Shown in pieces: positions 1-14,399 of a stretch of 32,000 bases of DNA (the stretch's first letter is position 1; each line of letters opens with the position of its first letter). The stretch lies in the NCBI RefSeq assembly GCF_000012285.1, contig NC_007181.1:1230001-1262000 (forward strand). The letters are read 5' to 3'. Position numbers and translations under genes: made by a program. The notes under the pieces were generated by a model. It searched no databases and was not told the DNA's origin. It was given only the letters and a program-made list of their open reading frames with translations. The DNA comes from Sulfolobus acidocaldarius DSM 639 (GTDB taxonomy: Archaea > Thermoproteota > Thermoprotei_A > Sulfolobales > Sulfolobaceae).

Positions 1-1354
1 CTATCATTTGATTATTTTCCTTTAGTCTACCTTCTCTAACACCCTTAATTAATACGGGATCTGAGAAATCAGAGAAGAAGAAAAAAGGATTCGTCTCATA
101 ATATTCCTCGCCCATAAATATTAGCGGTATATACGGTGAGAGTATATATAGTGTGGCTGCCATAAGGTATGTCGTTTTATCGGTTAATATGGAAAGTCTT
201 TCCCCATTTCCTCTATTTCCTACTTGATCGTGATTTTGTATGAAGACTACAAATTTACGTGGTGGAAGATCACCTACAGGAGCACCATGAGTTCTTCCTC
301 TGTATCTAGAATACTTTCCATCATAAACAAAAACATCTTTAAAAGTTTTCTCTATATCTTCTATCCTTCCAAAATCCTGGTAATAATAATCTTTTTCTTT
401 TGTTATGAATGCATGAACTGCGTGGTGGAAATCGTCAACCCATTGAGCATCTATTTTATATCCACAATCATCTTTTACTATTTTTGGATCATTTAAATCA
501 CTTTCAGCAATAACAAATTTTCCTAATTGATGGGCTTTTTCAGCTATCTCTTGGAGGATATGCTTAGGCGAATTATCAAAAATTGCATGAACTGCATCCA
601 GTCTCAGACCATCGATTTTAAAGGTCTTAAACCAATACTCGACATTTTCTAAAATGAATTTTCTAACTTGATCACATCCCCTATCATCAAAATTAAATGT
701 TAATCCCCATGGAGTTTTATATCTGTCTGAAAAATAAGGACCTAATCCTAAAAGGTAATTTCCCTCAGGACCTATATGATTATATACAACATCCAAAATT
801 ACGGCTATTCCCCTTTTATGTGCCTCGTTTACTAGCTTAGCCAATTCCCATGGTCCGCCATAAGTATTTTGAACTGCGTATAGAAAAACACCATCGTATC
901 CCCAATCTCTATTCCCTGGAAATTGTGCCACAGGCATCAGTTCAATTCCTGTGATTCCTAGATCCTTGAGGTAATCTAACTTTTCTATTACTCCTTTGAA
1001 ATTTCCTTCTTGGGAAAAAGTACCAACGTGGAGTTCATATATTATTAGATCTTCTATTTTTACTTTTCCAAGGTCAAGAATCTGATAATCTGTTCTTATA
1101 AGTTGTGATTTGTCATGAACTCCTAAAGGTTGATATCGTGATGCGGGATCAGGTATCTCTCTCTTATCTTCTATAATATAAGAATAGGTTAAATTTTCCT
1201 CGATATCGTCTATTTCTACTTCGAAAAATCCCTCATCGTTTTTTTCCATTGGAATAAGTTTTTTGCTTAACTTCAGCTTAACACTATTAACATAAGGTGC
1301 CCATAACTTAAAGATACCTTTATTTTTTTCAATATTTCCACCGAACGAAAACAT
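1..1354 (-). CDS. treZ: malto-oligosyltrehalose trehalohydrolase (GH13), 5' part; C-terminus lies beyond the window start
   Basis: Absent from the ORF track because it runs off the window. The minus-strand frame is open from ATG (cat 1352-1354) to position 1. Translation [27 protein letters not shown]... carries GH13 motifs [18 protein letters not shown] and FIQNHD, and matches my recollection of Sulfolobus TreZ. Confidence 0.85.
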
Positions 1355-1559
1355 GCTGTTTAAATAGAAATTATGTCTTAATATATTTAAATGTTTTCGA
1401 GTGAAAATACTTATCAGAACTGATTAAATTCTTATTATTGTTGAGTTATTAGAGTATTTAGTATATAAGTTAAAACCATCATTTGTTCTATGAGTGGGAC
1501 TTATCTAATAGAAATACAAAATAATAAAATCATATGGTAATATAAGAATAAGGTAAGTC

Positions 1560-1708
1560 TATGGATGATATTATGTTTACTTTATCAAGAAGAGTCAAGG
1601 TGGTAAGACGAAGGAGACTTACGTTGGTGCTTTAGTTGACCTAGTAAAGACTTACCTGAAATTGTAAGATAGAAGTGGGGTATTAGGGTGTATCCCCCTA
1701 ACCTTTCA
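1560..1708 (+). pseudogene. decayed Int(N)-like fragment of an SSV-type integrase, lying outside the left att copy
   Basis: 1569-1664 reads YYVYFIKKSQGGKTKETYVGALVDLVKTYLKL, then TAA (1665-1667), then a 1-nt deletion relative to the right-hand Int(N). It is ~70% nucleotide-similar by eye to 10263-10393 and resembles the SSV1 integrase N-terminus (RYYVYK...YVGPLADVVESYLKMK) as I recall it. Confidence 0.7.
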
Positions 1709-2518
1709 AAGGTAGCCGGGCAGGGACTCGAACCCTGGTCCCAGGGGCCAAAGCCCTGGTTAGGGGAGGAATCCCCTAAAACCCCTCTTTCAAATGATGA
1801 AGAGAGTAAGGGATTTGCCCTAAACTCCCTTACTTCTAGGGAGGGCAAAAATGGTCTCACGGAAAAGGAATTAATTGAATTTTATGAATATTGTTTGAAA
1901 ATGGCCAGTGAGGAAACTTGCAGGCAGTATATCAATTATCTGAAGAAGCCCCCTAGTAATGCTAAGAACTCTATCCTAGCCTGGAAGAAGTTCTACAAGT
2001 GGAAAGGGGATCTTGAGGCATGGAAAAAGCTGAAAACGAAAAAGTCTGGTGTTGATCTTAAGGTTCCAGGAGCTGACGAGATAGGGAGGTGGTTGGAGGC
2101 TGTTAGAGGTATTGAGGTAGAGCTAGTCTTCAAGCTCCTCCTTGAGAGCGGTATAAGGCTTAGGGAGGCTGTAAAGGTTCTCAATGAGTATGACGAGAAG
2201 AACAACGTGAAAGAGGACGGCTTCTACGTATACACGCTCAACTGGACTAGAGGGCCAAAGAAAGTGTTCTATGTCTTTCACATTTCGTCTATAGCTAAGA
2301 CTGATATAACGTACAACTACGCGAAGAATTTATTGCATGAGAAAGGGATAGCGCCGAAATATGTACGCAAATTCGTGACTACTAAACTCGCGGAGCTCGG
2401 AGTTAGTGCCGAGGTAATCGATTTCATGCAGGGCAGGACGCCTTCTTCGATTCTTGGCAAGCATTATCTCAACTTATTAGCCCTCGCCAAGAAAGACTAC
2501 AGACGCTACGCCGAGTGA
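1688..2518 (+). CDS. SSV-type tyrosine integrase, C-terminal catalytic part (Int(C))
   Basis: The ORF-track protein starts inside the att repeat (VAGQGLEPWSQGPKPW is translated tRNA sequence). It contains ESGIRLREAV, YVFHIS, KYVRKFVTTKLAELGV, DFMQGR and LGKHY, collinear with the SSV1 integrase catalytic region (GVRLSE ... RKFVASKMAEL ... FIQGR ... QHY). Confidence 0.85.
   Translation: MYPPNLSKVAGQGLEPWSQGPKPWLGEESPKTPLSNDEESKGFALNSLTSREGKNGLTEKELIEFYEYCLKMASEETCRQYINYLKKPPSNAKNSILAWKKFYKWKGDLEAWKKLKTKKSGVDLKVPGADEIGRWLEAVRGIEVELVFKLLLESGIRLREAVKVLNEYDEKNNVKEDGFYVYTLNWTRGPKKVFYVFHISSIAKTDITYNYAKNLLHEKGIAPKYVRKFVTTKLAELGVSAEVIDFMQGRTPSSILGKHYLNLLALAKKDYRRYAE
1709..1759. repeat. attL: 51-bp direct repeat, a partial 3' copy of tRNA-Gln
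   Basis: aaggtagccgggcagggactcgaaccctggtcccaggggccaaagccctgg is identical to 10394-10444. Flanking bases differ on both sides. Confidence 0.95.
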
Positions 2519-2578
2519 CTCAAAACGAATTTTTCTCAGTAAACTGGGAAGTTAATTCAAAGCTAAGTTGTTTTTAAA

Positions 2579-3118
2579 GTGTTGAATTTTGAGATGAAGT
2601 TATTCAAGGTTGCGTTAAAGGACCTCAATTATAGCAAGCTTGAGCAAACGCAAGTCTTCGGCAACGTCTTCGAGTTCGTCTTTCTGGAGAGAGAAAAAGA
2701 GGTTGACTTCTTTGTAAGGACATCTGCCCAGGAGGAAATTTTGAGGAAGTACCTCATGATAAAGGAGGACAATCTAAGTTTCAACCAAGGTTTCGTAGGG
2801 GTTCTGAGCCTGAAGAAAGAGAGCGACTTCTACGAGAACATTGAGTACAGCAATCTATTGAACATCATCACGTACTGGCAGAAGGATGAACAGATCAGGT
2901 TCTGGGTTGTGTTAGAGCCCAGGCTTAATGACCTCTTTCTCAGGAAGGCTGAGGTACTAAAGAAGGAGGCCCAACGGGCCATGTTTGGCAAGAGGAAGAA
3001 AGAAGTACAAGCGTCACTGCTCGGGAGCCTTGCGAAGAAGAACATCTACTTACTACATATCATGTTTTATACTAAGGATAAACAGAGGCTCAAGCTACTT
3101 TTCGAGTACGCCAAGTAG
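2579..3118 (+). CDS. hypothetical protein (element cargo)
   Basis: 179-aa ORF with GTG/TTG-type start, coding-like composition and no recognisable motif. Confidence 0.5.
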   Translation: MLNFEMKLFKVALKDLNYSKLEQTQVFGNVFEFVFLEREKEVDFFVRTSAQEEILRKYLMIKEDNLSFNQGFVGVLSLKKESDFYENIEYSNLLNIITYWQKDEQIRFWVVLEPRLNDLFLRKAEVLKKEAQRAMFGKRKKEVQASLLGSLAKKNIYLLHIMFYTKDKQRLKLLFEYAK

Positions 3119-4835: not shown

Positions 4836-6089
4836 CAGACCGTGTCCGGGACTGCTTATCTATATGCAAACTCGCAACTTCTCAATTCTCAATCTTTCGC
4901 TTATACTTTCTATCCAAGGGGAGGTAGCTATACTAACCTGCTCTCAGGGTCTGTAGTAGTACCATAGAGCGTAACATACCTCGTCTCAGGTCAATATACC
5001 ATATCTACGTATGCTGAAACGAGCTCTTCACATTCGAGACAGGGAAACTATACAATCGTCGTGACAGACCATTACCCCTCGTCACCATACATAACTACTC
5101 AAGGCAACGTGTACAACTGGTATGAATATGATGTATATCCAGCAGTTATCGTAATCGTGAACAATGGCACTAATCCAGTGACGTTATTTGCGAATAAACT
5201 GTACACGTCAAGGCAAATCACAACTACGATATCGTTCATGGACATCTGGAGCTCAAAGTCGTATCAAAACGCGACTAGTATTATCACGTATGATACATTG
5301 AATGTAGGAAACTACTCAGTAAGTAGAATATGGCACGCTGGGAATATAGTTCTTACAGCTCAGCAATATCTGCAACAATCAGGGAATACGTACAACTACT
5401 ACTTAAGTTTCAACTTGATAAAGGATGTAACGGAGCCACCGACATGGATATATCAAAAAATGCCGTACAACCCTTACGCTACGCAGGGCTGGTACTATCT
5501 TGAGCAGAACGCGACCTTGGCAAATGCTTTGATGCGGTATGTCAATCAAACGATGAACAGCACTGACGTACAGTACAAGTACTTCGAGTACTTCACACTA
5601 GCGAGCGAGTTCGCCAGCTATACTTTCAATACGACGTATAGCAAGTTTGCAAATACAATCGAGCTCGAGAGCTTCTACGACCCGTGGGTCTTAATGAACG
5701 TGCAAATACTCGACATAAGTAAACTACCAAACGCGATACAGTACTTCCCAGGCCAGCTTATGTTCTTCAATGTGTCTAGGATCCCAGCGGTATATAACGC
5801 GACTAACCTCGTGAACATCTCTGGAAACTACGAGATCTATTGGGTGGACCTGTACAATTCGTGGAACGGCCCGCCCTTCGGGAACGAGTACCAGTGGATT
5901 AACTTGGCGACGGGACAGAAGTATAACTTATACTTGTTTAACGAGACTGGGATACCGTACCCTGGCGAGATGCTTACTTTCTATAACGCTGACTTTATGC
6001 CGAGCATATACTATGCGATATTTATTTACCCTGAAGGGACAGTAGTAAAAATTGAAGCGGTTTGGAACGGGACAGCTTGGATAAGTTAG
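4836..6089 (+). pseudogene. truncated and frameshifted gene for an Asn/Tyr/Thr-rich, heavily N-glycosylatable extracellular-type protein
   Basis: ORF 5061-6089 (GTG start, no signal peptide) has 12 N-x-S/T sequons. The same kind of sequence continues upstream in-frame to 4968, and in another frame across 4836-4964 (QTVSGTAYLYANSQLLNSQSFAYTFYPRGGSYTNLLSGSVVVP*). It has no start codon and abuts the IS end. Confidence 0.55.
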
Positions 6090-6720: not shown

Positions 6721-8265
6721 CTAGAAAAGAAGTAGAAAGATACTTACGGGAATATATACTACATTATTCTCTTTATCCAGCTTGTCCTTTGTCAGCACTA
6801 TAACTGTGTCGTTGATACTGTATTTCCCAGTCTTAGGATTACTACTATACTTTGACTCTATGTAGAACTTATACTTCGAATTGTTCTTAGTTATACACAG
6901 AATAAAATCAATCTCGCCCTGATCATCCTTTCTATACATGAGTACTTTGTCATATTCCACATGGGTGACATGTTCAAACAGATATTGAGATTGGAGCAAG
7001 TGGGAGGCTACTACGCTTTCTACCAACAACCCTTTAAATGTGTTGTCTTTAAGCATTTTTCGTGACTCTTCAAAGGGGTCATCAGAGTTATGGAAATAAC
7101 TTCTAATCGAGTGGTATAGGAAGGGGTCAAGCACATAGTTTTTAACCATGTCCTCATAGTTTGGCTTACACTCCTCACTTTCTCTATATCCAAAAAAGAA
7201 GGAGTATGTAGTTATTAGGTAGTTAAAATAGTCCTTCCAGTTAATCTTCCTCTTGGGTTTCCCGCTCTCGTCCTCACCTATGACCTCTAAATTAATGGGA
7301 TTCATTAGGTTAGAAACTGTCATTGGACCAGTTAAATATTCTAGTAACCTCTCTAAGTTAGTAGGGTCTAGCCCAGCGACTTTAGAGTCCTTTATTAATA
7401 AATCTGCAATATTGTTGTAAAAGTTCTTCGATATTCTTCCCTCCTTAAGGTATTCGTCAATAGCCTTAGGATAACCTCCGTGCAATAAATAGTTTTCAAA
7501 AGATTCTCGAAGAAACACAAAGTAAGAGTCATAGAATTTTCTTAAAATATCGTCAATGGATCCACTGCGTAGAGAATTAAGGATTCCGAATCTATAGCCA
7601 GGTCTTCTAAACTTTTTGTTAGCAATAAATTCATTAATATCTTTACGTATTGCCTTAACTACTTCTGAGAAACGTAAAGGTCTCATTACTAGGTTACCGC
7701 CTAAGTTTATCATCTTAGCCATCTCACCTTGTCTATCGCTGAGCTTACTTGCTGCTTCAGCTAAGTCCATCGAATGACTCCCAGTTGCAATAATTCTCAC
7801 CTTATAGTTTTTTATTAAACCCTCGTCATAGGCGTTCTTCAACGCTTGAGCCCAACCTCTATACATTGAAACTTCATCTAGAAAAACGTATTTCTCTTCA
7901 TTATTACTCTCTGCTATTGCCTCCAATAAGTTGATTAGGCTAATGTTGTCAACTTTAAACTGCTCGTAATCTAGTGGAATGTAAAAGATATTTGATGGAT
8001 TTATTTGTCTCTCTTTAATGAGGTGACGTATTATAAGTTTAATGAGAGTCGTCTTACCAACTCTGCGGGGTCCTCTTACAGTTACAATGCCATAAGAGCC
8101 TGAGACAAAATTATTAGTTAGATGAAAAAATAGCCTTGGTCGTTCTTTTAGTTCTGAGTTATCGAACTCCCCTAGTTCATTATCTACCTTATCCCAGTCC
8201 TTATTTTCCCACCATCTATTAAAGTTCTTTAAGAGCTCACGTAGATTGTTGGTACTTAGTTTCAT
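6721..8265 (-). CDS. AAA-type ATPase (COG1373 / AAA_14 + DUF4143-like) with a C-terminal PD-(D/E)xK nuclease-like motif
   Basis: 514 aa. Walker A is GPRRVGKTT (nt 8050-8073) and Walker B is YVFLDEV. The C-terminus GEIDFILCITKNNSKYKFYIESK gives a D...ExK arrangement (about D453, E470, K472). The start overlaps the upstream AbrB gene by 29 nt. Confidence 0.8.
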   Translation of the reverse strand: MKLSTNNLRELLKNFNRWWENKDWDKVDNELGEFDNSELKERPRLFFHLTNNFVSGSYGIVTVRGPRRVGKTTLIKLIIRHLIKERQINPSNIFYIPLDYEQFKVDNISLINLLEAIAESNNEEKYVFLDEVSMYRGWAQALKNAYDEGLIKNYKVRIIATGSHSMDLAEAASKLSDRQGEMAKMINLGGNLVMRPLRFSEVVKAIRKDINEFIANKKFRRPGYRFGILNSLRSGSIDDILRKFYDSYFVFLRESFENYLLHGGYPKAIDEYLKEGRISKNFYNNIADLLIKDSKVAGLDPTNLERLLEYLTGPMTVSNLMNPINLEVIGEDESGKPKRKINWKDYFNYLITTYSFFFGYRESEECKPNYEDMVKNYVLDPFLYHSIRSYFHNSDDPFEESRKMLKDNTFKGLLVESVVASHLLQSQYLFEHVTHVEYDKVLMYRKDDQGEIDFILCITKNNSKYKFYIESKYSSNPKTGKYSINDTVIVLTKDKLDKENNVVYIPVSIFLLLF

Positions 8266-8593
8266 CTTTACTTAACCTCCTCAAATATCTTGCAAAGTCA
8301 AATTCAAGCCTACCCAGCTCCTTTGCAAGTCGCTCGTATTTTTCCTCCAACTCTTTAACCCTCTCTTCTAATTCGCTGTTTTGAGGTAGGCCGTCCTTAG
8401 TGATTACAATCTTTTTGTCACTCGTCAAGATTAGATAAATTTCCTCACCAGGCTTGAGGTCAAGTTCTCTAATGAACGAGCTAGGAATTTTTATCCTCCC
8501 TCTGACGTCTATAGTCATTTTCTTAGTCTCTTTAATTTCCACAATAATGTTATTTTGCGTAAAGGCTAATATTATTTTCCCACTTCTTCCCAC
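8237..8593 (-). CDS. AbrB/SpoVT-family DNA-binding protein with a C-terminal coiled coil (antitoxin-like)
   Basis: MTIDVRGRIKIPSSFIRELDLKPGEEIYLILTSDKKIVITKDG is a typical swapped-hairpin AbrB/MazE/SpoVT domain. The C-terminus ELEERVKELEEKYERLAKELGRLE is coiled-coil-like. The likely true start is the internal ATG at 8518, with ATTATT ~25-30 nt upstream; the ORF-track start 8593 adds 25 non-conserved residues. Confidence 0.75.
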   Translation of the reverse strand: MGRSGKIILAFTQNNIIVEIKETKKMTIDVRGRIKIPSSFIRELDLKPGEEIYLILTSDKKIVITKDGLPQNSELEERVKELEEKYERLAKELGRLEFDFARYLRRLSKDETKYQQST

Positions 8594-8642
8594 TATTGTA
8601 AACTAGTTAGATAGTTCACTCAATTTTTACCTCACTAATGAG

Positions 8643-8704
8643 TTGACCTCCTCCAACTTTAAAGGACGAGACTTACTTATTTTGAGTTAACTCCCCAGTT
8701 TACT
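8643..8704. repeat. left repeat module flanking ORF 8806-9951
   Basis: ttgacctcctcc-N6-aaaggacgagactt (8643-8674) has an inverted copy at 9983-10015. ttgagttaactccccagtttact (8682-8704) has a direct copy at 10038-10060 (20/23) and contains the 10-bp palindrome GAGTTAACTC. taaaggacgaga is repeated again at 8731-8742. Confidence 0.8.
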
Positions 8705-8805
8705 GAGAAAAAATTCAACTATGGTCATTCTAAAGGACGAGAGCCTTACCTTTAGGTCAGTCATCTCAGTATATTTTATTAATTCAGTTTTGTAATTATA
8801 TATAT

Positions 8806-9951
8806 ATGTCTAATGAGGAATGCTCTGAAAAAGTCGATGTACTTATTTGTGAAGAGCTGAATGTGCGTCTCAAAAAATTGAAAGAACTTCTTAAAGAGGA
8901 CGTTATCTACTCTAACACTTTGAAGTCACTTGAAGAAATCAATTATGAAAATGAAGAAGCCTCTAAAAAGGCAGCAGAGAGAATAATTGAATTTCTTGAT
9001 CACCGGCACGATGAGTATGTAAGCAAGAATATTAAAAAAGATGATCTCAAAGACGAATTAACCTTTCTTAAAACTAATCTATTAGTAGATCTTTCGAATA
9101 AAAATCTATGTGATGATAATAATGTTGAACAATACGGAAACAAAATTAAGGATGCTTATAAAAGTCTGAGAAATATAGAGGGAGTTGACTCCGTTATTGC
9201 ATCGGAAATATTGCACATACTTTTCCCAAACTTCTTCTTAATCTGGGATATCGAATTAGCTAAGTATATTATAGGTAAGCCAGCAGAAGAGCTTAATGAA
9301 GACGATTACCTCTGTTTCCTTAAGATTAGGTGTAAATGTATAAATCAAAATGAAATTACTCAGGCGTATTCAGAACATACTACATCAGAGAGCAAAAGGG
9401 AGGAAATAACTTTAATGAAACCAATAGACAAGCCTAATACGGGAAAATCTGCAGAAAAAAACAATCTTGTGACATCATCACCTGTGGAAGAAGAGAGAAG
9501 ATCAACAAAATATAACTATGAGGAAATACATCAGGATTTAGACAATCACATCTCTCTTAGTGACATAATAATCATGGCGCTTAGTAGTGAACCAAATAGG
9601 CTTATCATAGGCATAGACTCTCTCATTGAGCTGGTCCGCAAAGTATATAATGAGTTAAAGGAAAGGGGATTCCAAGTAGAGGACCTAAAGTTCGTGCTCC
9701 TTGATGATCAATTATTGCGTAAGAGGGTGCGTGATAGTCTTGAAGACCTCAGTAAAAAACAATATATTTACATAGAAGGGATACGGAAAGAGCAGTTTAA
9801 ATTAACAAATAAAGGATTTGAGATGGCCTTAAAGCTGTTCAAAAAGTTTGGGATAGATTTCGAAAACTTTAAAATGCGTATACAGAGAAGGCGTGCAAAG
9901 AGCCAAGATGAAAAAGAAAATGAAAGGCGTTTAAATGAGAATATTCAGTAA
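8806..9951 (+). CDS. hypothetical protein: N-terminal region with a helix-hairpin-helix-like motif, C-terminal winged-helix-like region
   Basis: 381 aa. Residues ~123-148, NIEGVDSVIASEILHILFPNFFLIWD, resemble the HhH plus downstream Asp layout of HhH-type DNA glycosylase-like domains (weak, by eye). The C-terminus LSDIIIMALSSEPNRLIIGIDSLIELV...YIYIEGIRKEQFKLTNKG looks like a wHTH. Confidence 0.6.
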   Translation: MSNEECSEKVDVLICEELNVRLKKLKELLKEDVIYSNTLKSLEEINYENEEASKKAAERIIEFLDHRHDEYVSKNIKKDDLKDELTFLKTNLLVDLSNKNLCDDNNVEQYGNKIKDAYKSLRNIEGVDSVIASEILHILFPNFFLIWDIELAKYIIGKPAEELNEDDYLCFLKIRCKCINQNEITQAYSEHTTSESKREEITLMKPIDKPNTGKSAEKNNLVTSSPVEEERRSTKYNYEEIHQDLDNHISLSDIIIMALSSEPNRLIIGIDSLIELVRKVYNELKERGFQVEDLKFVLLDDQLLRKRVRDSLEDLSKKQYIYIEGIRKEQFKLTNKGFEMALKLFKKFGIDFENFKMRIQRRRAKSQDEKENERRLNENIQ

Positions 9952-9982
9952 TGTCTCTCAGTGAAGGTGATTAAAACGAGGA

Positions 9983-10060
9983 AAGTCTCGCCCTTTATGG
10001 CGGGGAGGAGGTCAAAGAGTTTTTGGGAATGAAATGTTTGAATTAACTCCTCAGTTAACT
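9983..10060. repeat. right repeat module flanking ORF 8806-9951
   Basis: The reverse complement of 9983-10015 is ttgacctcctcc-N7-aaagggcgagactt, matching 12/12 and 13/14 against 8643-8674. 10038-10060, ttgaattaactcctcagttaact, is a direct copy of 8682-8704. Confidence 0.8.
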
Positions 10061-10202
10061 TAATAAAAATTGTAATTATAGTAATATTATTTTATTAGTA
10101 TTACTGATGAGGAATTTTTGCCCTGTTCTTTCAACTTTAGATTTGATTAAGGCAATTACCATCGATATTTAAGCTTTAATTATTTGAAGAGGGCAGAGTT
10201 AA

Positions 10203-10400
10203 TATACGGGTTATAGGACTTTCGTTGCCGGGCAGTATAAGATTCGTCAGAGAGGGAATAAGTATTATGTTTACTCCATAGAGAAGGGTCAAGACGGTAA
10301 GGTAAAGGAACATTATATTGATCCTTTAGCTGACGTGATTGAAACATATGTTAAATTGAAAGATAGTAATGTGGGTATCAGGAGTACCCCAATAAGGTAG
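10203..10400 (+). pseudogene. Int(N): N-terminal part of the partitioned SSV-type integrase, decayed
   Basis: Reads YTGYRTFVAGQYKIRQRGNKYYVYSIEKGQDGKVKEHYIDPLADVIETYVKLKDSNVGIRSTPIR* and is collinear with the SSV1 integrase N-terminus. The frame opens directly after TAA 10200-10202 with no start codon. It is 1 nt out of register with the frame that Int(C) uses through the att sequence. Confidence 0.75.
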
Positions 10401-10444
10401 CCGGGCAGGGACTCGAACCCTGGTCCCAGGGGCCAAAGCCCTGG
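10394..10444. repeat. attR: 51-bp direct repeat inside the intact tRNA-Gln
   Basis: Identical to 1709-1759. It covers tRNA positions ~26 to the 3' end plus 4 nt downstream. Confidence 0.95.
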
Positions 10445-10470
10445 ATCCTTGACCGCTAGACGACCCGGCT
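10398..10470 (-). tRNA. tRNA-Gln (anticodon UUG)
   Basis: The minus strand reads AGCCGGGTCGTCTAGCGGTCAAGGATCCAGGGCTTTGGCCCCTGGGACCAGGGTTCGAGTCCCTGCCCGGCTA. Acceptor stem is AGCCGGG/CCCGGCT, anticodon arm is CAGGG-CTTTGGC-CCCTG, T arm is CAGGG-TTCGAGT-CCCTG. Length 73 nt, no encoded CCA. Confidence 0.9.
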
Positions 10471-10566
10471 AAGTATACTTTGTCATATTTTAACTAAAAA
10501 GCTTTCTTTCCATTTAGTATCATGTAGTCAATACAGTATTAATTTTAAGAGTATAATCACCCTCTT

Positions 10567-10923
10567 TTACATATAGGTCTGTGGCTTTATTTCAACTTTT
10601 CCTTTCAGTACTGATTCTCTTATCAGGAAGTTATTTTCACTTAGTTTAATAACCAGAATGGAAATTAAGAGCTTAATCTTCCTCTTTCTATATTCGTTTA
10701 GCTCCTTAATTGTTTGTTTTAGTTGGTCTACTAATTCAGGAATGGAAAATCTAAGTAACTCGTCTTCCTCTTTTAAATTTCTAATTTCTTTCTCTAATTC
10801 ATAAGCTAATTTTAATAGATCTTCCTTTTGTGTATCTTTCAATAGTTTCAATAATTTGTCTGCAGCTTCAACAATTTTCTCTTCATTCATATCATGTATA
10901 ATGTCAAGTAAAGGTGCAAACAC
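10567..10923 (-). CDS. hypothetical coiled-coil protein
   Basis: 118-aa ORF (GTG start; alternative ATG at MNEEKIVE), Glu/Lys/Leu-rich, lying between two tRNA genes. No recognisable motif. Confidence 0.45.
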   Translation of the reverse strand: MFAPLLDIIHDMNEEKIVEAADKLLKLLKDTQKEDLLKLAYELEKEIRNLKEEDELLRFSIPELVDQLKQTIKELNEYRKRKIKLLISILVIKLSENNFLIRESVLKGKVEIKPQTYM

Positions 10924-10953
10924 AGTTTACATTTCATTAAACTAAATTAAAAG

Positions 10954-11050
<97 letters not shown>

Positions 11051-11077
11051 ATGATAATATATTCGCCAGGTTAAGAA

Positions 11078-11713
11078 TTAAAGATTTTCCTTATAAAAGG
11101 AAAATGTTGTATCAAGCCCGCTATCTTTTATGAATTTTGCTAAAAGATTGTATATCTGCCTTGCCCTGTTCAAAACCAAAAAGTCATTTGTGCATATTAC
11201 ATTATTACTCAAAATTAATTCTAAGTCCGTCTTTCTAACAGTTTTAGCATATATACCCCTATATCTAAGTTTACCTGCGAGCTCTCCGCTCCTACTTATC
11301 TGTGAATCTAAAATGATTTCGAATTTTATCTTATTCTGATCTAAATATTCTGAGAGAAGGACTAACATATCAAAGATTTCTTCTGAATTATTTTTTCTCT
11401 TGCCTAGTCCTAAGTCTCTATAAAAACCATCGTCACAAAGAAAGATTTCATCACCATAAATTAAAGAGAGTAATGTTAGTGCTAAATTGTAACCGTCTAG
11501 TATTACATAGGTTACACTTTTCACGCTTTTACTTCTTATATGTTGAATCTCTTCGTCACTATGGATACATCTATATAATAACAATCTTGATTTTTTATCT
11601 AAATTGTATCTTGAACTAATTAGATCTAAAGCCGGTTTTCTGTTATATCCTCTGTTTAAAAGGTACTTATAATCTTCATACGCCATTAGTAATTGCTGAC
11701 CTAATTGTATCAA
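11078..11713 (-). CDS. conserved archaeal hypothetical protein (DUF434-like N-terminus)
   Basis: 211-aa ORF immediately downstream of, and overlapping, alaS. The N-terminus [39 protein letters not shown] resembles the DUF434 signature as I recall it. The likely start is the internal ATG at 11686. Confidence 0.6.
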
Positions 11714-14399
11714 TTATCTTTTCCTCTTCAACAGTTATTGAAACACTTCCATATGTTCCTTTTCCTCCCCCTCTTCCACCAATTTTCCTTAATTCATCCA
11801 CGATTTTATCGACCTTTATGTCCTTTGATGTCGCAATTTCAACGTTCTTTGTATCTTTGCCTCTGATACTAATTACAATATTTTGATTGTTAGATGTGAT
11901 CTTCCTCATTACTTCTTTTATAAGCTGTTCATCTATAAAGTCTCTCAATATATATATAGTAATTCCATTGACGCTTATTCTCTCTGCAATCTCCTGTATT
12001 CTATCCAATACAATTTTACGATATTTGTCCAACAAATTCTGTAAGTTCTCATATTCTTCTAAATGTTTTTTGAGTCTTACATTAATCTGGGATACAGGCG
12101 AATTTAGCAACTTTGAGATTTCATTTAATTTCTCGTCCTGTTGTCTTGCATAATTGGATACCATATCACCAGCTACATATTCTAGTCTTATTACACCGTC
12201 TTGAAGTTTTTCGACGTTCACTATTTTAACTCCTCCAATTTCTCCGGTGTTTATGAGATGGGTTCCTCCGCATCCCTCTATATCCCAATTTTCTATTTCT
12301 ATTAGTCTTATCTCAGACCCTTCAGGTATTCCTCCAGCATATATAGAAACTCCATATTTCATTTCAGCTTCAGTTCTCTCAATATATAGTGGTCTAACTT
12401 TTCTGCGATCATTAATTATATAGTTAGCAAAATCTTCTATTTTCCTTATCTCTTCTTCTGTAGGCAACTTATAGTGAGTTACGTCAAGTCTTCCTTTATA
12501 TTCTGTTTTCTCAGCCCCTGCTTGCCATGCATGTTCTCCTAATACTCTTCTTGTGGCTGATAAAATCACGTGCGTAACCGTGTGGTGTTTCATAATTCTA
12601 TATCTTCTTTGCCAGTCTATTTCACCATATACTTGCTCTCCTTGAATGAAGGGAGAATCTTTGTCAAGTATATGCACAATTACTCCCTTATACTTTTGGG
12701 TATCAATTACTTTGGCCTGCTTATTACCCTCAATTGATCTTATAATTCCCGTATCACCTATTTGACCTCCACCCTCAGGATAGAATGTCGTTTGATCTAG
12801 GACTAGGAAATTTTTATAATTTAATAACACTTTTGCATTGAATGTCCTCAGATACTGATCTTTATAGTAGAGAGGAACAGTTGGCTCTATTTTTTTATTG
12901 TTTATTTCATCAATAACTTCTTTGGGAATTTTATCCTTCCTATTTTCTCTCACTAGAGCATTTTGATGTTTCTTTGCTACAATGGAGTAGAAGTTATGAG
13001 GGATTTCAACGTTAATATTTATATTCCTTTTTCTCGCTTCATCTAATATTAGATCTGGGGAAATACCATTAGAATCGTATATGTTAATTAGTTCATCTAA
13101 GTCAACTTTGCTCTTTTTAGATAACGTTGAGAGTATGGAAGGAATTTTGCTTATTGTATCATTATACTTCTCCTCCTCATTTATTACTGCATCAACTATA
13201 TAGTCTTTATTCTTTAACATCTGTGGAAAATCTTCTTTCCAATAATCAATCTGATCCTTTATTAGTTCATGTAGCTTGACATCACTACCTAATAATCTAA
13301 GGACTCTGAGAGCTCTTCTAATTAATAACCTCCCTAGATATCCCTCGCCTGAGTTAGAGGGTACAAGTCCATCTGCTAACATGAGAGCAATTGTTTTTGT
13401 GTGATCAAGTACCTGAAATACTCTGGCAGCTCTTGTAAGTTCCTCATTTACATACTTCAAATCAAGACCTAATTGTTTTGCTAAATGCTCCCTATGGGCA
13501 GTTATAGTCTCTTTTATGTCAGGATCTATTCTACCTGCGTATATAGCAGCAGCTTTAAGTAACTCATTATTTACTTCACCAACGCCAATCTTTTTGTAGA
13601 ACGAGCTCACTAAATTACCATAAATCGCATGGAAGGCTGTTGGGGTTCTCTGTGTAAACCATGCAATTCTTTCAACACCATATCCTGTATCTACAATCTT
13701 AAGTTTTAAGGGTACGTAATCTTGTCCCCTAATTTCGTATTGCATAAATACCAATGTAGCTAATTCTAAGCCTCCTACTGTTACTTCGAAACACGGTCCT
13801 GCATTACCTCCACCCTCCCACCATGATTCTTTAAAGTTTAACTGATCTTCAGGGATCCCTAGTTCTTCTGTAAAGAACTCCTTAGCAAATGCTACTGTTT
13901 CGTCTTTCCAATAAATTTGTTTATCAGGATAATTGAATGCATGATGAGCAGCCATTTCAAATGTGGTCAAATGCCTTCCAAATGTTATTCCTACGTTATC
14001 CACATCTTCTAGTCTTATACATGGCTGAGAAACTACCAGTGGATTTGCAGGCGGTTTAGCTAATCCGCTCGTTACAAATGGTTGAAAGTCAACTATACTA
14101 GCTATAGTAAGATAAAGATCATCTCTCCACTTGGCAACTACAGGTTTAGGTGGAACTATGGTGTGTCCTCTCTTTTCAAAGAATCTTAGAAATTTTTCTC
14201 TTGATTCTCTCACTGTTAATGGGGGAGATTTAATCTTGATATCAAAGAAGTAATAGTCAGTACAAGGAACATCTGAACAATTTTCCTTTGACTTATCTAA
14301 AGTCCAAAATGGGGTAGAACAGGATCTACAAATTTTTCTTTCATATCCTCTTGACAGAAAAAAGTTTAACCTGTACTCGTTCTCGTTTGCTTTGACCAT
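11676..14399 (-). CDS. alaS: alanyl-tRNA synthetase
   Basis: 907 aa. Archaeal AlaRS features include the N-terminal Zn-like CRSC...[11 protein letters not shown], the GPCFEV class II core, the editing-domain HHTVTH...CGGTH motifs, and a C-terminal DHHA1-like region with GGRGGGKG. Confidence 0.95.

Follow-up and report, generated by a model that had tools for sequence, protein, structure and literature searches.

Two repeat families flank ORF381

We analyzed a 32,000-nucleotide (nt) stretch of the chromosome of Sulfolobus acidocaldarius DSM 639 (contig NC_007181.1, positions 1,230,001 to 1,262,000; hereafter the window, whose own coordinates are used unless genome positions are stated). It contains ORF381, an open reading frame (ORF) of 381 amino acids (aa), which lies between two pairs of repeats. 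ORF381 starts with ATG, and no other long ORF is present between the repeats. As the original prediction had stated, ORF381 is divergent from a gene for an AbrB-type protein. That prediction, made from the sequence alone, saw ORF and repeats as a cassette-like unit beside an ATPase module. ORF381 and both repeat pairs sit wholly within an element integrated at a tRNA-Gln gene. The features of this element are compiled in Table 1.

Table 1 Features of ORF381, its repeats and the surrounding integrated element, in window positions.
Feature	Position	Strand	Description
Int(C)	1688..2518	+	Catalytic C-terminal part of a partitioned SSV-type integrase; PF16795 'Archaeal phage integrase', E=7.5e-42
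attL (left attachment site)	1709..1759	-	Direct repeat of ~51 bp of the 3' part of tRNA-Gln (alignment); left border of the element
Third 23-mer copy	2538..2560	-	Core 2540-2555, 1 mismatch; 19 nt past the Int(C) stop, 18 nt ahead of ORF179
ORF179	2579..3118	+	N-terminal fragment of a TraG-like conjugation protein; tblastn, 36% and 27% identity
AbrB/MazE-type gene and AAA_14/DUF4143 ATPase gene	6721..8593	-	Neighbouring module; Pfam; PADLOC PDC-S01 (ATPase)
Hairpin copy, degenerate	8643..8674	-	5' arm and AGGAGGTCA tail kept, 3' stem arm lost
23-mer, head of ORF381 module	8682..8704	+	Core TTAACTCCCCAGTTTA at 8687-8702, 0 mismatches to the consensus TWAACTCCCCAGTTWA
Partial hairpin 5' arm	8731..8743	-	CTCTCGTCCTTTA; inside the palindrome 8701-8771
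ORF381	8806..9951	+	N-domain ~aa 1-212, DUF6308-like; predicted disordered linker aa 195-245; C-domain aa ~227-381, no relatives
A7 homopolymer	9455..9461	+	Domain junction of ORF381; one A fewer gives 221-aa and 160-aa ORFs
Hairpin copy, well preserved	9973..10015	+	21 nt past the ORF381 stop, followed by T5 (10020-10024)
23-mer, head of integrase module	10038..10060	+	Core 10043-10058, 1 mismatch to TWAACTCCCCAGTTWA
Int(N) remnant	10203..10399	+	Runs into attR (right attachment site); no usable start codon at the 5' end

The 32-nt module at 8643-8674 recurs in inverted orientation at 9983-10015, as predicted, with one mismatch in 26 specified bases, although the spacer of this second copy measures 7 nt instead of the 6 nt that had been given. 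Accordingly written with a spacer of six, the pattern matches itself alone, and written with a spacer of seven it recovers the inverted copy, where no chance matches are expected. The 23-nt repeat (23-mer) at 8682-8704 does recur directly at 10038-10060, with three mismatches. The direct similarity around it reaches 35 nt (8681-8715 versus 10037-10071, 83%), and a second short block, TTGTAATTATA, is found at 8790 and 10070. A third copy of the 23-mer, missed in the first reading, lies inverted at 2538-2560 with two mismatches, where again none is expected by chance. A chance origin of the repeats was ruled out, as the observed copies are far above the expectation of zero.

The original prediction had called for a search for other copies. 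Both modules turned out to be multi-copy repeats of mobile DNA, distributed in the manner of miniature inverted-repeat transposable elements (MITEs) and not unique to this locus. They do not make up the single composite module of ~60 bp that had been proposed; instead, they belong to two unrelated families, the 23-mer to a plasmid dyad motif and the 32-mer to an end hairpin of the IS200/IS605 type. Repeats of both kinds are genuine, yet commonplace in the mobile DNA of Sulfolobaceae.

A dyad motif at the probable heads of modules

The core of the 23-mer is a 16-bp dyad, TWAACT-CCCC-AGTTWA, with 6-4-6 symmetry (TAAACT-CCCC-AGTTTA). The S. acidocaldarius genome contains nine exact copies of this 16-mer and about 20 copies with at most one mismatch. 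For the full 23-mer (at most four mismatches), three copies were located in the window element, others at 395-427 kb and 1303-1305 kb, and one each at 588 kb and 1658 kb. The 16-mer was found in 39 of 47 Sulfolobaceae genomes, and a reversed control pattern in none of them. It is densest on small TraG-encoding contigs, reaching 16 copies (at most one mismatch) on each of the plasmids G027:C2 and G028:C2, one of which is also present as an integrated copy.

Within the two mobile regions of the S. acidocaldarius genome that were examined (394-428 kb and the window element), 10 of 11 motif copies are intergenic; on the two plasmids about half are (85% coding density; ORFs called crudely). In each of the three elements examined, i.e. 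the two plasmids and the window, the traG start is preceded by the motif at 24-72 nt; the orientation of the motif and its distance to genes otherwise vary.

Stretches of homology were found to begin or stop at the motif. The stretch that the window shares with the locus of a paralogue of ORF381, termed ORF194, begins at 8679; those shared with the leaders of other integrase genes begin at 10032 or 10039; and the one shared with the end of another Int(C) (genome locus 1305 kb) stops at 2561. When the two plasmids were aligned with each other, 11 of 38 ends of high-scoring segment pairs (HSPs) fell within 25 bp of a motif, compared to about one expected, and none of 5000 circular shifts reached 11.

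The first of these stretches was compared in full. From 8679 to ~8860, the window is ~96% identical to the paralogue locus (genome 413.0-413.8 kb), a stretch that takes in the motif, the promoter and ~50 nt at the start of the ORF. Beyond ~8860 the identity falls to ~70% (47% for the protein), and to the left of the motif the two loci are unrelated. The 127-bp non-coding stretch is thus 96% identical, versus ~70% in the adjoining coding sequence. Because the non-coding DNA is more conserved than the coding DNA next to it, the alignment suggests that a recombination or conversion event occurred recently and ended on one side at the motif.

Taking these observations together with the nature of the surrounding element (see below), we consider that ORF381 and its flanking repeats are probably two consecutive motif-headed modules in a decayed, mosaic, plasmid-derived element at tRNA-Gln, and not a self-mobile cassette. 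The dyad would stand at the heads of modules, before the DUF6308-like gene (ORF381), the integrase gene and traG, and would mark the starts and ends of homology blocks. The left 23-mer would then belong to the ORF381 module and the right one to the integrase module, so that the apparent bracketing reflects two modules in a row. The right-hand 23-mer, which had been read as a bracket of ORF381, is indeed part of a leader that is conserved among integrase genes. Exchange between the two direct copies (8682 and 10038), of the kind published for such plasmids, would delete the 1356-bp ORF381 segment or transfer it. The term cassette-like is fair as a description of the layout, since the 23-mer family marks module junctions, but a self-contained mobile cassette is unlikely: the stem is lost upstream and a Y1 transposase is missing. 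What remains of the cassette idea is a weak version, with exchangeable segments marked by the motif family.

In reverse complement, the 16-bp core resembles TAAACTGGGGAGTTTA, which is reported as the recombination motif of the pING/pNOB8 plasmids (Stedman et al. 2000; Greve et al. 2004). Besides the same core on the opposite strand, the window motif shares with the motif of this Sulfolobus plasmid family its many copies on TraG-encoding contigs, its intergenic position and its location at the ends of homology blocks. In contrast to that family, the remnant that holds the motif here is small and chromosomal and has a partitioned SSV-type integrase; its copies are TTAAC/TTTAC variants, one core mismatch being present in two of them, and no recombination event was observed. 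Literature text searches for the motif sequence returned nothing relevant. Conjugative plasmids of the Sulfolobaceae form deletion and rearrangement variants by recombination between characteristic, distributed or direct-repeat motifs, and degenerate plasmids reside at tRNA genes (PMC4390879, PMC4872121).

Several points weigh against this interpretation. The motif itself can anchor short HSPs, which inflates the count of 11 in 38 HSP ends. Recombination at the motif was not observed at the locus, and selection on a regulatory site could also make homology end at a conserved motif. Two further points concern the hairpins. Two variants otherwise rare in the family, GTCTCG and GGTCAA, are common to both window copies, which hints at a local (inverted) duplication that the model leaves unexplained. 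In addition, ORF381, ORF194 and the homologue in genome G013, three Sulfolobaceae members of the protein family, each have a hairpin of the same orientation downstream, and it may be functional for the gene, at the 3' end of the transcript, rather than a relic.

The regulatory possibility can be stated more fully. A dimeric DNA-binding protein that co-regulates the ORF381, int and traG promoters could use the 16-bp dyad as its operator or upstream activating site; the adjacent AbrB-type protein, the C-domain of ORF381 or a plasmid regulator would be the candidate binders, and homology blocks would end at the dyad merely because it is the outermost constrained element. The 6-4-6 symmetry would suit such a site, as would the strongly intergenic and usually upstream position of the motif, its occurrence in a leader common to several integrase genes and, in three elements, 24-72 nt ahead of traG, and the divergent AbrB-type gene alongside. 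However, the distance to the start codon varies from 24 to ~145 nt, both orientations occur and several copies adjoin stop codons. Moreover, the 96% identity of the 127-bp non-coding stretch next to coding sequence at ~70% fits a conversion tract better than selection, and no locus-encoded protein co-occurs with the motif across elements. We therefore regard an operator role as rather unlikely; it would be compatible with the arrangement in motif-headed modules and does not exclude it.

We also considered a stronger form of the modular arrangement, in which genuine site-specific exchange takes place at the dyad, which would bound swappable gene cassettes in plasmids of the Sulfolobaceae and in their integrated remnants, as an integron-like archaeal system. 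The ORF381 unit, consisting of motif, promoter, gene and hairpin/terminator, would be one such cassette, and the DUF6308/HhH-GPD-like protein encoded in it would target DNA at or close to the exchange sites. We hold this to be improbable.

Read as consecutive motif-headed modules, what looked like a private cassette becomes a readable example of how Sulfolobaceae plasmid remnants are built. A shared 16-bp dyad that heads modules, with stretches of similarity starting and stopping there, provides a testable handle on the reshuffling of archaeal plasmids. Smaller points are the rare protein family with a confident but unmatched fold and a glycosylase-like signature, and the abundance of the hairpin across the Sulfolobaceae; none of this would greatly surprise a specialist.

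Three dyad motifs were also seen to form a conserved cluster, at 403417-403809 in the S. acidocaldarius genome, at 8972-9369 on G028:C2 and at 13030-13425 on G027:C2. Two copies are 57-67 bp apart and the third lies ~310-325 bp off, with orientations (+,+,-) in the S. acidocaldarius genome and on G027:C2 and (-,+,-) on G028:C2. The cluster sits in a non-coding stretch of both plasmids and of the 395-427-kb region, and is a candidate origin or control region.

A plasmid remnant integrated at tRNA-Gln

The integration target is tRNA-Gln(UUG) at 10396-10470 on the minus strand, which is overlapped by attR. At the other border, window 1569-1759 matches window 10263-10444, and ARAGORN calls a tRNA-Gln-like gene at 1711-1788. 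The Int(C) ORF starts within this left att repeat. Across the Int(N) remnant at the right border, no plus-strand ORF of at least 50 aa is listed; the remnant resembles Int(N) fragments elsewhere in the S. acidocaldarius genome. An Rfam and tRNA search of the window found no RNA in the repeats, its sole matches being the tRNAs at 10398-10470 and 10959-11050.

A sister species of the same genus (G039) has an empty site, in which sequence corresponding to window 1-1759 is joined straight to that of 10262-14000, with flanks ~95% identical to the window. Therefore, the ~8.5 kb between 1759 and 10262 is an insertion. The empty site itself (G039:C1:1198593-1198784 versus window 1569-1759) retains an Int(N)-like fragment beside tRNA-Gln, which is the footprint of an earlier integration at the same tRNA.

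A partitioned integrase, direct repeats derived from a tRNA and an empty site in a relative were thus all found, as expected of an SSV-type element. The cargo is of another kind. The tblastn subjects matched by ORF179 are the N-termini of a 1014-aa and a 1032-aa ORF on the plasmid contigs G027:C2 and G028:C2, both of which bear a TraG-D_C domain. ORF342 (5061-6089) shares 49% identity with a gene of G027:C2, and ORF160 is a relic of an IS6 transposase. The element is a conjugative-plasmid remnant joined to an SSV-type integrase.

This arrangement resembles the elements with SSV-type ('suicidal') integrases in Sulfolobales tRNA genes in that int is likewise partitioned, with Int(N) and Int(C) separated at att repeats derived from the tRNA, and in that the empty site exists in a relative. 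It differs from them in its cargo, which is plasmid-like (a traG fragment and a plasmid ORF homologue) and not fuselloviral, in the missing start codon of Int(N), and in the IS6 relic that interrupts the element.

The hairpin family

The 32-mer is a copy of a unit of ~42 nt, ...GAGGAAAGCCTCGCCC-TTTA-GGGCGGGG-AGGAGGTCAG. The S. acidocaldarius genome holds 17 hairpin copies (at most two mismatches; none for the control), all 17 of them intergenic, and 39 of the 47 Sulfolobaceae genomes carry the hairpin, at up to ~70 copies per genome. The sister species G039 has several copies 83-95% identical to window 9973-10014. The identical hairpin sequence ends the gene region of a 450-aa OrfB_IS605/Cas12f-like-TNB protein (TnpB), and it also ends TnpB-less elements of ~350 nt that carry a similar hairpin at the other end and match Rfam HgcC and sot0042 below threshold. 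Judged by its sequence, the hairpin is the right end of an IS200/IS605-type (TnpB) element, here in the form of solo units.

The window hairpins share the arrangement CCTCGCCC-TTTA-GGGCGGGG-AGGAGGTCA with the right end of IS200/IS605 (TnpB/orfB) as seen in the 450-aa TnpB gene region and in the ~350-nt TnpB-less elements, which resemble palindrome-associated transposable elements (PATEs) or MITEs, and they likewise belong to a dispersed intergenic family. By contrast, the window copies are solo units of ~42 nt that have no partner end and no TnpA, one of them having lost a stem; they are inverted and not same-strand ends, and there is no stable subterminal hairpin.

The two window copies are unequally preserved. 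The upstream copy (8643-8674) differs from the 29-nt core by six substitutions and one deletion, and the downstream copy matches the 16-nt tail exactly, with few changes in the hairpin core. In folding calculations, neither copy outperformed shuffled sequence (z = -0.06 and -0.78). No match to the Y1 transposase family PF01797 was found in the S. acidocaldarius genome, which holds five or six TnpB genes, and no TnpA was found beside the hairpin at 404.7 kb. Because the genome lacks a Y1 transposase, both window copies would be immobile. Within the motif-headed modules, the 32-bp repeats would be relics of the right-end hairpin of a TnpB element, and the ORF381 transcript probably has the downstream hairpin, with its T5 run, at its 3' end. 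No further hairpin copy was found downstream of the ATPase gene.

These properties bear on whether ORF381 is carried by a small transposable cassette, either MITE/PATE-like or composite, with the inverted hairpin modules as its ends. The hairpin does belong to a dispersed multi-copy family, the window copies share private variants, and ORF194 and the G013 homologue also have the downstream hairpin in the same orientation. On the other hand, the upstream copy lacks the 3' arm of the stem, the predicted folding of both copies is no better than that of shuffled sequence, a Y1 transposase is missing from the genome, the paralogue locus has no upstream copy, and there is no second copy of the whole unit. 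In IS200/IS605 transposition, the left and right ends are on the same strand and not inverted, with which the inverted ends seen here conflict. A transposable cassette is therefore extremely improbable.

A palindromic segment of ~70 nt, TACTGAGA…TCTCAGTA with an inner CTAAAGG/CCTTTAG stem, occupies 8701-8771. It is missing from the similar leader at 10061-10070 and present in the paralogue locus, and may be a small insertion carrying the partial hairpin arm listed in Table 1.

Solo hairpins of ~42-47 nt (…TGAGGAAAGCCTCGCCCTTTAGGGCGGGGAGGARGTCAG) occur in the S. acidocaldarius genome at, for example, 421551-421591, 2151210-2151250 and 409517-409557, and many solo copies are preceded by TTAC/TTA-like bases. 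At genome 417000-421000 (locus L001), a truncated TnpB gene (417900-418895, plus strand) abuts an opposite-strand ~350-nt TnpB-less element (418875-419228), which suggests nested IS200/IS605-type insertions in the 395-427-kb mobile region.

The ORF381 protein and its neighbours

Searches of Pfam, NCBIfam and PADLOC with ORF381 gave no significant match. Its N-terminal ~185 residues are 47% identical to ORF194, and a scan of 1.8 billion representative proteins recovered only 20 relatives of ORF381, mostly of ~200-245 aa. When the ORF381 N-terminus and these 20 relatives were aligned, 17 of the 21 sequences matched DUF6308 (PF19827) at E<=0.01, the best at 6.5e-8. The gathering cut-off of DUF6308 (27.3 bits) was reached neither by ORF381 itself, which had no match, nor by its paralogue, which scored 22.7 bits (E=1e-4). 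The family is sporadic, being present in 12 of 301 genomes of the class, with neighbours that vary (ResIII helicase, NurA, HSDR_N, DUF3782).

The model of the N-domain is all-helical and confident, with a predicted local distance difference test score (pLDDT) of 89.3 and a predicted template modelling score (pTM) of 0.87. Foldseek searches with the full-length model against the PDB, and with the N-domain model against the PDB and BFVD, yielded nothing below E=0.9. For the N-domain model, the best PDB E-value was 1.3, with OGG1, EndoIII and MutY at E 3-6 and template modelling (TM) scores of 0.12-0.32. A sequence search of solved structures with ORF381 found nothing.

The original prediction had pointed out a segment resembling a helix-hairpin-helix (HhH). 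This segment aligns weakly with the HhH hairpin of EndoIII-type glycosylases, without a significant fold match. The alignment was made with hhalign between the family profile and 14 Sulfolobaceae EndoIII-like proteins (P=0.0039, probability 8.6%). It pairs the GxGxTxxSKIL segment of the family (GVGpTsASKIL) with GIGeKTADVVL and WD with PVD(THI), and thereby places an invariant Asp of the family (D148 in ORF381) on the catalytic Asp of the PVDTH motif. ORF381 itself has GVD in place of GxG and has lost the C-terminal DEYNW motif of the family. The GxG hairpin with its helix and the invariant Asp ~21 residues on may correspond to the HhH and PVDTH Asp of the EndoIII/OGG1/MutY (HhH-GPD) enzymes; no catalytic Lys aligns. 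We consider this weak HhH-GPD-like signature of the ORF381 family to be no more than suggestive.

A search of 5.8 billion proteins found no homologue of the C-terminal 146 residues, nor did these match any profile or structure. A winged helix-turn-helix (wHTH)-like C-terminus, as had been predicted, could not be confirmed, since neither Pfam nor the PDB gave a sequence match and the call rests solely on a sequence pattern. In the AlphaFold2 (AF2) model, helices of the C-domain have pLDDT values of 45-84, and the region presumed to be the wing falls below 50. ORF381 is most likely cargo with a DNA-related function.

It had also been proposed that ORF381 supplies the AbrB/ATPase module with a third component, which would be a sensor or a partner that modifies DNA; the repeats would then be control sites common to both. 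ORF381 and the AbrB/ATPase genes are adjacent and divergent, with a common intergenic region, the ATPase matches the PADLOC candidate system PDC-S01, and some ORF381 homologues adjoin nucleic-acid enzymes (ResIII helicase, NurA, HSDR_N). When the loci of eight homologues were inspected, however, none contained a homologue of the window AbrB protein or of the AAA_14/DUF4143 ATPase (phmmer E<=1e-3), nor does the paralogue locus have such a neighbour. At one homologue locus (L024), a single neighbour gave a below-cut-off match to a different archaeal ATPase family, PF01637. ORF381 has no PADLOC match, and the sporadic occurrence of its family (12 of 301 genomes of the class), with varying neighbours, likewise argues against a fixed partnership, which makes a third component very improbable. 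An integrase next to the ORF381 homologues was not found in any of the eight loci.

The 381-aa protein is on record from 56 contigs, while one assembly has proteins of 221 aa and 155/160 aa instead. Deleting one A from the A7 run at the domain junction reproduces both split proteins exactly, with a GTGA stop/start overlap. Because 221 aa is a length typical of the ORF381 family, a one-base slip may have joined two genes to give ORF381. A homopolymer run thus determines whether two genes are read as one protein.

The paralogue ORF194 (L005:584-1168, minus strand, corresponding to genome 413083-413667) stops at a TGA just ahead of the conserved DEYNW motif, which continues in another frame (…TITKLADEYNWPK); the C-terminus of ORF194 is therefore frameshifted or truncated.

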